In this document: positions 28,299 through 58,063 of the stretch, piece after piece
Layout: every line of letters begins with the position of its first letter
Position numbering within the stretch: position 1 is the stretch's first letter
IMG/VR virus record: IMGVR_UViG_3300021400_001366
Coordinates: 1-64,000 of that record
Source: a virus
Lineage: Duplodnaviria; Caudoviricetes
Length of the DNA: 64,000 nt
Reading direction: 5' to 3' (one strand)
Notes under the pieces: model-generated
What the model saw: only the letters and a program-made list of their open reading frames with translations
Databases searched by the model: none
What the model was told of the DNA's origin: nothing
Translations under genes and position numbers: made by a program

Positions 28299-28528
28299 GA
28301 TTCAATTCACGCGTGTGTACGAATTGAGAGATTCGCTTCATTCAAGCGCTCTTCCAGTTCGCCGATTCAATTCGCGCGTGTGTACGAATTGAGAGCTGGA
28401 GAAGCTCGTGATATTTCGTGATCTCGGCTGATTCAATTCGTGTGTGTGTGTGTGGATTGAGAGTCAGCAAGAGCGAAAACACACTACTGCGCTTAAGATT
28501 CAATTCACGCGTGTGTACGAATTGAGAG
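28299..28528 (+). CRISPR. CRISPR mini-array B: four repeats GATTCAATTCACGCGTGTGTACGAATTGAGAG; spacers 33, 34 and 33 nt
   Basis: repeats at 28299-28330, 28364-28395, 28430-28463 (degenerate, TG expansion) and 28497-28528. Confidence 0.95.
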
Positions 28529-35654: not shown

Positions 35655-36281
35655 ATGCGGCGATTGTATGCAGCTCATGGGCGAGATCGAACCCTCTATA
35701 GGGGGGGCATTGAGCTATGCGTTACGGATATTCCGTATGATGTAGTCAATCGCGATTCAAACGGTATCAGGAATTTCGACAAGGGGAAAGCCGACGAGGG
35801 TACATTCGATCTTGAGGATTTTCTGTCTGGTCTGCTTCGGGTTGTGAAGGGCAGCATTTACATATTCTGTTCAACAGAGCAGGTAAGTTGTATCCGCAAG
35901 TTTTTCGTAGATCACAAGTTATCAACTCGGCTTATCATTTGGGAAAAGACAAATCCTTCGCCTGTAAATGGTCAGCATATTTGGCTTAGTGGGGTCGAAT
36001 GCTGCGTGTATGCGCGAAAGAAGGGCGCTGTGTTTAACGGTTTCTGCGAGAATACGGTGCTGAGATTTCCATGCGGCAGGAACAGGCTGCATCCTACACA
36101 AAAACCTGAAAAGCTGATAGAGAAACTTGTTGAAATGAGTTCAAACCAGGGCGACGTAGTATTTGACCCGTGTATGGGCAGCGGCACGACATGCGTTGCA
36201 GCGAAGAACCTGGGTCGTAAATACATAGGCTTTGAACTTGACGAAAAGTATTTTGAGATAGCTAAACAAAGACTGGCTTAA
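35638..36281 (+). pseudogene. N4/N6 DNA methyltransferase frameshifted at a G7 tract (phase-OFF)
   Basis: TTG 35638 reads MESYIKCGDCMQLM.. to G7 (35701-35707); TDIPY, HPTQKP and FDPCMGSGTT lie in another frame; G8 restores the frame. Confidence 0.8.
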
Positions 36282-36315: not shown

Positions 36316-36973
36316 ATGCGTGTTTTAGTTGCTTGCGAAGAATCCCAGGCTGTAACAAAAGAACTGCGGAAATTGGGGCATGAAGCGTACAGTTGCGACC
36401 TCCAAGAATGTAGCGGAGGTCATCCCGAATGGCATATTCAGGGTGATGTCACATCTATTCTAGGGGGGGGGCTGTGACTTCGTGACGATGGATGGTGTGC
36501 AACATAGCATACCCGATAGATGGGATATGATTATTGCACATCCACCATGCACACACTTATGTTCGAGCGGCCAAAGATGGTTCACCGAAGGTAAAAAAGA
36601 TTACCGGCTTCAGCGCGAAGCAATAGCATTTTTCTATCAATTTGTTATGGCCGACTGTGATCGTATCGCCATTGAAAATCCGGTAGGAGTAATGAGCACA
36701 GCTTACAGAAAGCCAGATTGCATCATCAATCCATGGCAGTTTGGTGATCCAGAACAGAAGAAAACATGCCTTTGGCTTAAAGGACTTCCTCCGCTAAAAG
36801 AAACAAATAACGTCTATGATTATATGATGACACTACCGCCCAAAGAACGTGCTCGAATATGGTATTTGGGTGGTGGTCACGGCAAAGAGCGAAGTAAAAC
36901 ATATCCTGGAATTGCCCGTGCAATGGCAGAACAATGGGCTGGTGATGCAACACTAACCGACTCAAAATCTTAA
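36316..36973 (+). pseudogene. cytosine-C5 DNA methyltransferase-like gene frameshifted at a G9 tract (phase-OFF)
   Basis: ATG 36316 MRVLVACEESQ..GGHPEWHIQGDV stops at TGA 36475; AHPPCT and IENP follow in another frame; G8 or G11 restores the frame. Confidence 0.82.
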
Positions 36974-53852: not shown

Positions 53853-53871
53853 GGGGGGGGGGTGCGGCGAC

Positions 53872-54381
53872 ATGAAGAAAGAAAAGATGGTATTCAATCT
53901 TTCTCACAAAGATCAGGATGAATGGAGAGAGTACCCGATAGACATTGATTTTGTATTCTATCCTAAAGAATCTCACATGCATGGCTTCCACGATGAGCCT
54001 CCTAAAACTTTCAAGGGAGTCTACAAGGTTTATTACTGCTGGGCGATAGAGAAAACCAAGGGGCCACATCCTGCAAAACCGTTGTTTAGCATTGGCTGCG
54101 ACGAGTGTTCTGCCTTGACTGATTTGTCCGAAGTAATACGCCAGTGCATCAGAGAAAAGAAGGATAAACGCTGTTTAACGGCGGGTCAAGATGGTTCTGA
54201 CTGGCATTTATTCTTCATAAAACGTGGCTTTTATCCTGCTGCAAGAATCGGTTTTTACGTGTTTAGCAACTTCACTAACAAGGGCTATCGCTTCTATCTT
54301 GAAGCAGAACGCGCTGAACAGTTTGCAGATTTCCTCGATGAAGTGAACAACCATATGCTGGAGAATGGAGAACCGATATGA
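53872..54381 (+). CDS. hypothetical protein with a G10 tract at its RBS position
   Basis: ORF; G10 at 53853-53862. Confidence 0.7.
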   Translation: MKKEKMVFNLSHKDQDEWREYPIDIDFVFYPKESHMHGFHDEPPKTFKGVYKVYYCWAIEKTKGPHPAKPLFSIGCDECSALTDLSEVIRQCIREKKDKRCLTAGQDGSDWHLFFIKRGFYPAARIGFYVFSNFTNKGYRFYLEAERAEQFADFLDEVNNHMLENGEPI

Positions 54382-54831: not shown

Positions 54832-55344
54832 ATGAAGATGGACAAAGTATGTGACAGCAAGAACGACGAGTTTTACACACCAGAATACGCGATCAGGCCA
54901 ATTATGAAGTACATTGCCCCCCCCGCAAAGATATGGTGTCCGTTTGATACTTCAGACAGTTTATTTGTGAAATGCTTTACAGAATCAGGCTATGAAGTTG
55001 TCAACACTCATATAAGCGATGGCGATGATTTCTTTGATATGGAAGTGCCAGAGTGCGATTACATAATCAGTAACCCGCCTTATTCGCTAAAAACGGAAGT
55101 GTTAGAACGTCTGTTTGAAATAGATAAGCCGTTTGCAATGCTTGTTGGCGTTGTCGGGTTGTTTGAAAGCAAGCGCAGGTTTGAAATGTTTTCAAACAAC
55201 ACTTTTGAGATTATGTACTTGAATAAGCGTGTTTCCTATTTCAAAGATTATTCAGAACAGAAACCATCGTTAAACCCTCCATTTAGTAGCGTATATGTCT
55301 GCCACAATTTACTGCCAGAGAAGATAGTATTTGAATGTGTATAG
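54832..55344 (+). CDS. small adenine DNA methyltransferase-like protein, in frame through a C8 tract
   Basis: DEFYTP, IWCPFD, IISNPPYS; C8 at 54917-54924. Confidence 0.82.
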   Translation: MKMDKVCDSKNDEFYTPEYAIRPIMKYIAPPAKIWCPFDTSDSLFVKCFTESGYEVVNTHISDGDDFFDMEVPECDYIISNPPYSLKTEVLERLFEIDKPFAMLVGVVGLFESKRRFEMFSNNTFEIMYLNKRVSYFKDYSEQKPSLNPPFSSVYVCHNLLPEKIVFECV

Positions 55345-55356
55345 GAGGCGATTCAG

Positions 55357-56296
55357 TTGAAAACACCGGACGAACTTAGAGAAATCATAGCCAACGCCAA
55401 AGAAGAAGTCAGACAATTCGACCATCATACAACCTGGGATGATGTAAAGGATATGACTACTGCCGAAGCTATCAGCGTATTATCTAGGCTTGCAAACTCA
55501 GATGGCAGAGATTGGAGCGCAAGACCGCATCTCGCAAAAGCATGTCAAATGGCTATCGAAGCACTACGGAAGGAGAAGGATAATGAAGCCGATTCCTAAT
55601 GGTTATACATATACCCGCTGCGATCAGTACACGCCAGAAGAGTTTGCAAAGCGCCATACAGATTTTCGCGGAAAGCCCAGACCAATTTGTGTTGAGTATA
55701 TGCGGGATCATCCCAAGAAAGTGTATACCACGGATGACGATATTGCGCTAATCGAAATGCTGAATGAACGTAGCGTCGGCAGTATGATACAGTTGACAGG
55801 CAAAAACACCACGAAGCGCTATAAGTATGAGGTCGTGTAGATAGCAGCGAGAATAGAACGTATGAAAGAATACTATCCTGTCTATGACAGAAAGAATGGA
55901 TTGTATTTCATCAAAGATAAGCTACCAAACAACCAGACCATTATCATGTCGTTTGAAAACTACGATAATTCGTATGACACGGATTATTGGAATATCGCGC
56001 TATGCGTTGTGAACAAGCGTAAACACATCGACCATGTTTTTGATAACTGTGAAATCACTGGTGGCGATCCTGTTGCGACGGTTCGTATTGCCAGGGATAT
56101 GTTTTCTTCACTTGAAAACCAGATTATACGAGACATAGATTTATACGGCACGAAACAACACGTTTCATGCACATGGCTTGACGCGAAACGACGGAATGTT
56201 TATGCACATTTCTTGAAGCGGCGAGGGTATCAATACGGCATGTTTGACGGTAAGAAAGTATTGTACAAGGTGTATAAAGGAAGTGATGTTGATTGA
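55357..56296 (+). other. three hypothetical genes (55357-55599, 55583-55840, 55862-56296)
   Basis: coupled ORFs. Confidence 0.65.
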
Positions 56297-57972
56297 TTTT
56301 AACCGAAGATCAGGCAAGTAGAATATCATCAGATGGTTTAATCCATGACGCTGAACGCCTGAAAGAACTGCAAGCTCTACCGCTAGAACGTAAGATTGGC
56401 ATTTCAACGGCAAGAATCATTGAATGGTATCAGTATTGGAATGGCAACGTTTACGTGAGTTTTTCAGGCGGCAAGGATAGTACAGTTCTGCTACATCTTG
56501 TAAGAAGCATTTTCCCGGATGTGCCAGCGGTTTTCTCAAACACAGGTCTTGAATATCCTGAATTGCAGAAATTCGTAAAATCGTTTGATAACGTCATCAC
56601 TCTCTATCCTAAGATCGGTTTCCGTGAGGTTATTTCTACATATGGTTATCCGCTAATCAGCAAGGAAGTAGCTGAAGCTATTTACTATGCACGTAGAATT
56701 AAGCCTCAAAATACCGGGGGGGGGTATTCAAGACTACAAACCGGAAACGTACAGAACTCCAGGGATTGCGAGAGGATTCAGGGAAGCAACAGCAAAACGC
56801 AAAGACCTACTCGGAATACGGGGGGGGGCATCTCGAAACGGATCGTCGAAGGAAAGACCTGCTCAACCTCCGCTCCACGACTGGCGACGAATGGTTCTGC
56901 TCGGAAGCTGCCCCCCCCAAGTACAGACTGGACTAACTGGCGACGTGCATGTCTCTGCAACGCACAAAAACAATTTGGCGAGAAGAGCATGTTCAACAAG
57001 GAGAAGTGGTTGCCGATAGCGCGTGATCTGCCAGTGCCTATTTCTCATTACTGCTGCAATATAATGAAGAAACAGGTCATGAACAAATACGCGCATGAGA
57101 CTGGTCGTAAACCTATTATTGGAACCATGACCGAAGAAAGTCGAATGAGAAAGCAAGCGTGGATTCGTCATGGCTGCAATGCATTTGATAGCAAGAAAGC
57201 GTCCAGTCAACCGCTGAGTTTCTGGACTGAACAGGATGTTCTCACTTATATCAAGTTGTTTGAATTAGAAATCGCGCCAGTGTATGGCGACATCAACATT
57301 GTAGATAGTAAAGGCAATATCGTCGAAACCGACGAAGCTGGTATGCCTGAAGGTTGCAAGTGGGCTTGCAGTAAGTGTACAAGAACAGGTTGGTAATACA
57401 GCCGTGTGTAGTGGCGACATTACATATAATAATAGTGTGAACCCTATTGCTCAGGGGTGTGGCGAAAGCTGCTAACGGTGAAGCCCTTCACGGGGTAATA
57501 CCGTGCCGTTGATAATGCTTAAATTTATTGACGCTAAACAAGCAAATGTCAAATATATTTTACATTATTTGCGGTGTAACGACTATGGTGGTTGCACCAG
57601 TAGGACAGATGATGAGCTACTGTCCGAAGCGCACTACATCTCACTGAGATGAAGAGATAGTCTGGGCTTGTGGAAACACAAGAATAACCGTGTATATACT
57701 GCGGTTTCGGCGCTCACTTAGAGAAAGGCGAAACAAGGTTCCAGCGTCTTGCGAAAACTCATCCACGACAGTATGAGTATTGCATTGGCGGTGGTCAATG
57801 GGTAGATAATCCTGCTTATGATCCTACTGCCAGCATGGAGCCTGATGAAATGGGCTGGGTAAACTACAATCCGAAAAAGATATTCGTGCCTAGCAAAGAT
57901 GGCATTGGCCTGGGTACGGTATTCAAGATGGCTAACGAAGTCATGGGTTACGAATTGTACAGATGGGAGTAG
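56293..57972 (+). CDS. PAPS-reductase-family (PP-loop) protein, two exons (56293-57390 and 57691-57972)
   Basis: VSFSGGKDSTVL, NTGLEYPE, CCNIMKK, PLSFWTEQDVL; splicing restores RTG-CIYCGFG...RFQRL..THP. Confidence 0.88.
57391..57690 (+). ncRNA. group I intron (IA2-like), 300 nt, no ORF
   Basis: 5' exon ends in U paired with G in P1 (ggttg/cagcc); terminal G; P7 GACTAT 57581-57586 / ATAGTC 57657-57662; P8 catctc/gagatg; P9 cttgtg-gaaa-cacaag; P10 ataca/tgtat. Confidence 0.92.
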
Positions 57973-57997
57973 GGGAGTCATATTAGGACTCCCCTTT
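57971..57997 (+). terminator. intrinsic terminator
   Basis: AGGGGAGTC-atattag-GACTCCCCT-TT. Confidence 0.85.
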
Positions 57998-58063
57998 GGG
58001 AACGACATATTTTCACCAGAAAATACAGTTTGATTGTATTATGCGGTGAAAATGAGGTATAGC

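Follow-up and report, generated by a model that had tools for sequence, protein, structure and literature searches.

A probable three-tract contingency cassette with motif copies in overlapping reading frames of a PAPS-reductase-family gene of a rumen phage

Phase variation at simple repeats usually switches a gene between two states. The locus described here, a gene of the PAPS reductase family in an uncultivated rumen phage, carries an insert with three homopolymer tracts, and is probably a multi-state switch that yields different full-length proteins. The gene is found in a stretch of 64,000 nucleotides (nt) that was analysed as a whole (hereafter, the window) and that represents the first 64 kb of a 137.6-kb IMG/VR contig (IMGVR_UViG_3300021400_001366). 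The closest described systems are phage contingency loci. According to the available parts of a preprint (Gomez, Barrick, and Waters, bioRxiv 10.1101/2025.10.21.683753), these include the T2 agt gene and other homopolymers of at least 6 nt, at which reversible frameshifts lead to heterogeneous progeny, a phenomenon read as bet-hedging against host defence. The likeness lies in homopolymer slippage within phage genes, a DNA-modification gene among them. As far as those parts of the preprint go, the loci are single ON/OFF tracts, whereas here three joint tracts are combined with a stretch open in all frames and with compensated full-length alternatives. In bacterial phasevarions (Type I hsdS, Type III mod, and Type IIG genes), repeats switch DNA-modification genes at random, and the specificity of some hsdS genes depends on repeat length, as described in the accessible sections of two papers (PMC7383803, PMC4889913). 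Those are host genes, for which the same sections describe alternatives produced by truncation or spacing, whereas in the phage gene one segment is laid out in three frames.

Poly-G tracts of Campylobacter phages (Fletchervirus) reportedly vary within populations and create phenotypic diversity by ON/OFF switching of receptor-binding genes (Sorensen et al. 2021, Cell Reports). These tracts also lie in phage coding genes; to our knowledge, no multi-frame internal cassette has been reported for them. In Helicobacter pylori, fucosyltransferase genes combine a poly-C tract with a −1 frameshift cassette, so that the reading frame depends on the homopolymer and a second signal is able to correct it. 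The arrangement resembles relatives of the phage gene that carry a +1 element similar to that of prfB (see below), but in the window the frame would be reset by a third DNA tract, not by a translational signal, and the fucosyltransferase genes store no alternative motif copies. Diversity-generating retroelements and shufflons likewise diversify one protein segment while the rest stays constant; unlike them, the cassette has no reverse transcriptase, template repeat, or invertase, and its variants are pre-stored in the reading frames. Among the systems compared, none is known to store motif copies in three frames of a tract-bounded segment. The literature search retrieved no published description of the cassette, nor of repeats in phage PAPS-reductase genes. 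The cassette is assigned here to the simple-repeat contingency loci, as a variant with a coding mode not described in the literature searched.

The insert comprises 98 residues, is predicted to be disordered, and lies between a Y-Y-A-R-R helix and an F-N-K-E-K-W block. With frame 0 denoting the frame read in the window assembly, the features of the cassette are as follows.

56716..56724, + strand: tract 1, G9; would set the frame of segment 1, and encodes Gly-Gly-Gly whatever the frame
56725..56819, + strand: segment 1, 95 nt; all three frames open, frame 0 motif-free, frame 2 with M1, frame 1 with M2
56820..56828, + strand: tract 2, G9; would set the frame of segment 2 jointly with tract 1
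56829..56910, + strand: segment 2, 82 nt; all three frames open, frame 0 motif-free, frame 2 with M3, frame 1 with M4
56911..56918, + strand: tract 3, C8, the reset tract; Pro-Pro in any frame, must restore frame 0
56934..56936, + strand: TAA stop met in frame 2 without a reset by the C tract, read from the sequence
57017..57019, + strand: stop met in frame 1 without a reset by the C tract; protein P0130 terminates here
56745-56765, + strand: motif copy M1, frame 2 of segment 1
56795-56815, + strand: motif copy M2, frame 1 of segment 1
56847-56867, + strand: motif copy M3, frame 2 of segment 2
56885-56905, + strand: motif copy M4, frame 1 of segment 2
56941-56961, + strand: motif copy M5, of W-R-R-x-C-L type, in frame 0, the frame read in the window assembly

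The two G9 tracts and the C8 tract lie exactly where an earlier sequence-only reading of the window had placed them. That reading also held that all three frames are free of stops from the first to the last tract, and indeed the 203 nt at 56716–56918 contain zero stop triplets in the three forward frames. In shuffles that preserved the tracts and the segment composition, the probability of such an open stretch was P = 1e-4 (mononucleotide) and 3.5e-4 (dinucleotide); the flanks of the same exon hold 24 and 20 alternative-frame stops per ~405 nt. Beyond the C8 tract, the alternative frames terminate as had been proposed, frame 2 at 56934–56936 and frame 1 at 57017–57019.

The five alternative motif copies that had been claimed over the three frames were recovered as M1–M5. 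The pattern K/R-K/R-x-x-[LIMVF]-x-G/N was matched five times against 0.24 matches expected, and the maximum reached among 5000 dinucleotide shuffles was three. M5 is common to every full-length state and stands directly before the conserved F-N-K-E-K-W block, where AlphaFold predicts, with low confidence (predicted local distance difference test, pLDDT, ~60), a helix formed by residues 214–223. Insert-poor homologues, such as P0003, have an M5-type motif at the same place. Strict copies of the motif, one or more per protein, are read in frame in 71 of the 92 full-length homologues, and most of the others carry near-matches. In the window assembly, both segments are read in the motif-free frame 0, and the product is full length.

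Natural alleles of the same phage lineage were gathered from the 90%-identity protein cluster plus its nearest neighbour, using assemblies from Logan, ENA, and JGI. The frames of P0132, P0133, and P0134 were deduced from the proteins alone, and L057 is a partial contig. Tracts are given below in the order 1 / 2 / 3, with the net change in brackets.

Window, L003, and L004: CC-G9 / G9 / C8; segments in frames 0 and 0; full length, M5 only
L002 / P0002: CCC-G9 (+1) / G8 (−1) / C8; segment 1 in frame 2 (M1), segment 2 in frame 0; full length
L051 / P0128: G9 / G11 (+2) / C9 (+1); segment 1 in frame 0, segment 2 in frame 1 (M4); full length
P0132 and P0133 (protein only): segment 1 in frame 0, segment 2 in frame 1 (M4); full length
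P0134 (protein only): segment 1 in frame 0, segment 2 in frame 2 (M3); full length
L057 (partial contig): tract 3 is C10; segment 2 in frame 2 (M3); in frame downstream
L052 / P0130: CCC-G8 (0) / G10 / C9; segment 1 in frame 0, segment 2 in frame 2; unreset, truncated at 242 amino acids

Full-length proteins of the lineage are thus P0001, P0002, P0128, P0132, P0133, and P0134, and P0130 is truncated. All three tracts differ in length within the lineage. At tract 1, the first base has changed from G to C in a sister sublineage, which gives CCC-G8 (L052), and in the same background CCC-G9 (L002) amounts to a net +1. Tract 2 occurs as G8 (L002), G9 (window), G10 (L052), and G11 (L051), and tract 3 as C7 (a contig of X9, a further run of the window's probable source sample), C8 (window), C9 (L051, L052), and C10 (L057). 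Across the lineage, two frames (0 and 2) are thus in use for segment 1 and all three for segment 2. The length variants carry linked point differences, and the length changes compensate each other in the full-length alleles; as the assemblies come, in addition, from three pipelines, homopolymer error is ruled out as the cause. Replication slippage as the cause of the length differences, and the rate of switching, are inferred.

These contigs and proteins, with their compensated shifts and one truncated allele, bear out the claim that tract lengths choose the frame of the two internal segments. The need for the last tract to reset the frame is illustrated by L052, which is unreset and whose product P0130 is truncated at the frame-1 stop. 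The locus has three features that characterize contingency loci, namely an in-frame tract that sets the frame, tract lengths that differ among close relatives, and both expressed and non-expressed states. The further proposal of up to 3 × 3 full-length variants plus OFF states stands in part, since the documented states comprise four of the nine full-length possibilities and a single truncated form; the other five, including those with segment 1 in frame 1, were not found. No natural protein with segment 1 translated in frame 1 (M2) turned up when one was sought, which is weak evidence.

Inserts at the same site were extracted from 119 loci, yielding 95 distinct sequences; the JGI metagenome scan contributed 8 loci, with a readable cassette in L057 and L059, and L056 and L058 came from tblastn. 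The inserts of homologues range from 29 to 178 residues in length.

Inserts without repeats: 45 in frame, 1 out of frame; 4.18 stop triplets per 100 nt
Inserts with one repeat: 13 in frame, 18 out of frame; 3.86 stop triplets per 100 nt
Inserts with two or more repeats: 8 in frame, 10 out of frame; 0.23 stop triplets per 100 nt between the repeats, 2.09 elsewhere

The flanks of the gene show a stop density of 3.86 triplets per 100 nt. Among the 95 distinct inserts, the reading frame varies only in those that bear repeats. Sixteen of the 18 multi-repeat loci are stop-free in all frames from the first to the last repeat, and in 11 of 12 representative lineages this stretch is significant on its own (P ≤ 0.022). 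The repeats of the family are G or C runs, (GA)n, and (AC)n, each of which gives the same peptide in every frame. In a sister clade (L006–L047, IMG/VR contigs of 120–139 kb), (GA)5 to (GA)15 is found at the same gene site, and the insert length modulo 3 is distributed about evenly over 0, 1, and 2. The (GA)n number differs in four of eight pairs of this clade that diverge by ≤ 0.2% over ~2 kb, so the repeats change much faster than point substitutions accumulate. An out-of-frame state is also found in the related lineages L053–L055, L144, and L145.

The end of the insert (window 56919–56990) has two readings within the family, a W-R-R-x-C-L type and a Gly-rich one, both derived from the same DNA by a shift of frame; which of them became fixed differs among lineages (L005, L013, L023, L040, and others).

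Evidence that more than one frame is conserved comes from a module located between two repeats in seven lineages (window, L053, L058, L059, L056, L144, and L145). In all six lineages other than the window, motif A in frame a is followed by the adjacent motif B in frame a−1, and M1 and M2 of the window have the same frame offset as A and B. Nucleotide identity across the module lineages is ~57–60%, and the motif residues are kept through codon-family swaps (Arg AGR/CGN, Leu TTR/CTN). Amino-acid identity reaches 60% and 54% in the motif frames, compared to 25–29% for the same bases in the other frames. In several module assemblies, A or B is found in a frame that is currently not joined to both gene ends; their conservation even in unjoined frames implies translation at a frequency sufficient for selection to act on these frames. 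At the level of sequence comparison, protein-level conservation of the two adjacent out-of-phase motifs exceeds that of the third frame.

A possible second means of joining frames is seen in relatives. In 35 of the 95 distinct inserts, a purine-rich Shine-Dalgarno-like run is followed by a 3-nt spacer, C-T-T, and T-A-G, and this prfB-like element is always in register for a +1 slip into the downstream frame (e.g., L024, L019, L020, L026, and L045). Alleles with an insert length of 1 modulo 3, including the single repeat-free 'out-of-frame' locus, are all open exactly to the prfB-like stop. Some of the alleles counted as out of frame may, judging by their sequences, be expressed by recoding. 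The insert of the window was searched for the element, which is absent from it; the window has one base fewer at the corresponding site, and therefore the two frames are fused there. In the window, the C tract is the only reset.

The best reading of the locus is a three-tract contingency cassette that gives several full-length isoforms plus OFF states (probability of roughly 0.75). In this mechanism, replication slippage would lengthen or shorten a tract by one or two bases; the frame of segment 1 would follow from tract 1, that of segment 2 from tracts 1 and 2 combined, and tract 3 would restore frame 0. A net shift that is a multiple of 3 would give the full-length enzyme, always with M5; segment 1 would add nothing, M1, or M2, and segment 2 nothing, M3, or M4, for up to nine isoforms. 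With other net shifts, translation would end at 56934 or 57017 and leave a truncated enzyme (OFF). The alternative frames would be kept translatable by selection, and the motif copies would matter to the protein. Several observations weigh against the cassette as so described. Only four of the nine full-length states were seen, and frame 1 of segment 1 is absent from those found. All of the variation seen is between assembled contigs of different strains or samples. The predicted disorder of the insert would fit a tolerant linker as well. In many homologues, the frame used at the insert's end is not that of the window, which indicates that the region tolerates frame changes over evolutionary time. 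Finally, the motif windows used for the comparison of frames were chosen by pattern, which inflates identity in that frame; the test was therefore repeated on the whole repeat-bounded segments, where the mean local alignment scores were 58 in the frame of A, 65 in the frame of B, and 36 in the third frame.

The tolerant-linker argument can be extended to an ON/OFF switch only, with functionally equivalent readings of a disordered linker and open frames that merely let compensated double slips restore the protein. AlphaFold gives no usable model of the insert (pLDDT < 50 for residues 140–209), homologues accept insert lengths of 29 to 178 residues and differing frames, the single-(GA)n sister clade has many stops in the alternative frames, and the window assembly is full length while both of its segments are motif-free; all of this would agree with a plain switch. 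This explanation is nevertheless judged unlikely, because A and B each keep their protein sequence across lineages, in two different frames, at a nucleotide identity of ~57% and through codon-family swaps, because 71 of the 92 full-length homologues have at least one strict in-frame motif, with near-matches in most of the others, and because the compensated shifts in L002, L051, P0134, and L057 land on motif-bearing frames.

The same alleles bear on the possibility that slippage of RNA polymerase or of the ribosome is the main source of isoforms, each genotype giving a mixture of frames in any infected cell and the DNA differences being secondary. Long homopolymers can promote both transcriptional and ribosomal slippage, and the prfB-like +1 element of relatives makes recoding plausible in the family, but the window lacks this element and compensated length differences are directly seen in the DNA, which renders such an origin highly improbable. 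Sequencing or assembly errors at homopolymers, or decay of the gene, could be suspected from the error-prone nature of such tracts, from the contigs of runs X3 and X9 that break at or near them, and from the many out-of-frame relatives. Neither errors nor decay would be expected to produce frame-keeping pairs of changes (+1/−1 and +2/+1), linkage of the changes to point differences and their recurrence in the assemblies of three pipelines, repeat-free inserts that are in frame in 45 of 46 cases, or the depletion of stops between repeats in many lineages, and this account is hardly credible.

The cassette-bearing open reading frame (ORF; 56293..57396) matches PF01507 (E-value, 3.3e-18; above the curated cut-off) and phrog_424 (E-value, 1e-38), and the gene is organized as follows.

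56293..57390, + strand: exon 1 of the PAPS-reductase-family (PP-loop) gene, based on the ORF, PF01507, and phrog_424, with its end set by the intron-less L051
57391..57690, + strand: group I intron, 300 nt, based on RF00028 and intron-less alleles
57691..57972, + strand: exon 2, part of the spliced coding sequence join(56293..57390,57691..57972)

The spliced coding sequence encodes 459 amino acids. Exon 1 carries the S-G-G-K-D-S loop in addition to the variable insert, and this PP-loop is invariant in 55 homologues. The profile match together with the S-G-G-x-D-S motif places the protein in PF01507 (PAPS reductase / PP-loop ATP pyrophosphatase). According to AlphaFold, the enzyme core has a predicted CysH-like fold (pLDDT > 90), and the best Foldseek matches are CysH and APS reductases (E-value, 1e-6; target TM ~0.6). 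Assimilatory PAPS reductase CysH proper was rejected, as the NCBIfam cysH models score 20–35 bits against cut-offs of 154–254. Instead of the E-C-G-L-H catalytic motif, the C-terminus has a Cys-rich extension with a C-x-Y-C-G-F-G-A-H block. The sequence-only reading had called the enzyme DndC-like, which did not hold: NCBIfam yields only generic, partial matches of CysH/CysD type, and no DndC family is among its matches at E ≤ 0.01. The same reading had regarded the insert as a likely DNA-recognition element, a proposal on which the AlphaFold model, with pLDDT < 50 for residues 140–209, confers no support. PADLOC produced only weak matches in the P-loop region, to BrxP (E-value, 3.5e-12; residues 46–95) and SspD (E-value, 1.7e-8), and searches of solved structures by Foldseek and by sequence returned generic CysH/CysD-type relatives with no functional clue. 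Homologues of the enzyme number in the thousands, with 8000 matches from the first search alone. No match, and hence no close relative, was found among GenBank phages by megablast with 55800–58000, and an exact 25-mer of segment 2 had no match in IMG/VR. The public runs that hold the phage contig are sheep, cattle, or goat gut or rumen metagenomes.

The intron is located just before the conserved Cys-rich C-x-Y-C-G-F-G-A-H block. Its match to RF00028 (33.6 bits; E-value, 2.6e-6) is below the gathering score of 50. The intron is polymorphic—it is precisely absent, with an in-frame junction, from P0128, P0133, and P0134 (460 amino acids) and from L051. The 5′ exon ends with T at 57390 and the intron with G at 57690; the core model match, the precise absence in sisters, the U before the 5′ site, and the 3′ G identify it as a group I intron. 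An RNA element or intron inside the cassette itself was considered and rejected: no Rfam family was detected in 56700–56990, the repeat-free relatives are in frame, and the conservation is at the protein level.

Six G or C runs of at least 8 nt are present in the genome, compared to ~1.5 expected from base composition (own estimate), and all six are found within 36.4–57 kb. Each of the genome's other long G or C tracts lies within or beside a DNA-modification gene. The many neighbouring methyltransferases that had been pointed out are indeed present, and three of them carry tracts of their own.

35701-35707: G7 near the 5′ end of an N6_N4 DNA methyltransferase gene (ORF 35655-36281)
36463-36471: G9 that splits a phrog_757 DNA methyltransferase gene, out of frame in the assembly
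53853-53862: G10 that directly follows the stop codon of the upstream gene and ends 9 nt short of the ATG at 53872, where a ribosome-binding site would lie
54917-54924: C8, in frame within a phrog_799 DNA methyltransferase gene (54832-55344)

The typical N-terminus of the N6_N4 methyltransferase is encoded upstream in another frame, so that the gene looks shifted in the window, and one extra G at the G7 tract would join the two parts. The two parts of the phrog_757 gene, 36316–36471 (profile positions 15–60) and 36482–36970 (72–222), are in different frames. In the 93%-identical strain L051, the tract of the phrog_799 gene is C9 (L051:1045-1212), with no gene called there, and the G10 run at 53853 is G4 (L051:1-143). 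Further simple repeats are (GT)7 at 28440–28453 of the window and (TA)10 at 137410–137429 of the genome.

Virome studies usually class this enzyme family as a sulfur-metabolism auxiliary gene (cysH; e.g., PMC13369170). Because of the repeats, the frequent out-of-frame state, and the adjoining tract-bearing methyltransferase genes, the data suggest a conflict-related contingency gene, not one of housekeeping metabolism. The isoforms may differ in function, for instance in the binding of a partner or substrate, and the gene may belong, together with the nearby tract-bearing methyltransferases, to a phase-variable DNA-modification or counter-defence set, an assignment that is put forward tentatively. 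More doubtful is a combinatorial diversification, in which versions of a short binding motif would be stored in overlapping frames and slippage at the three tracts would pick those displayed. If it is true, one phage lineage would have an OFF state and as many as nine enzymes of different function, with specificities that vary, for example, by partner, host factor, or substrate, and the cassette would represent a slippage-driven analogue of shufflons and diversity-generating retroelements in a phage DNA-modification or counter-defence gene.

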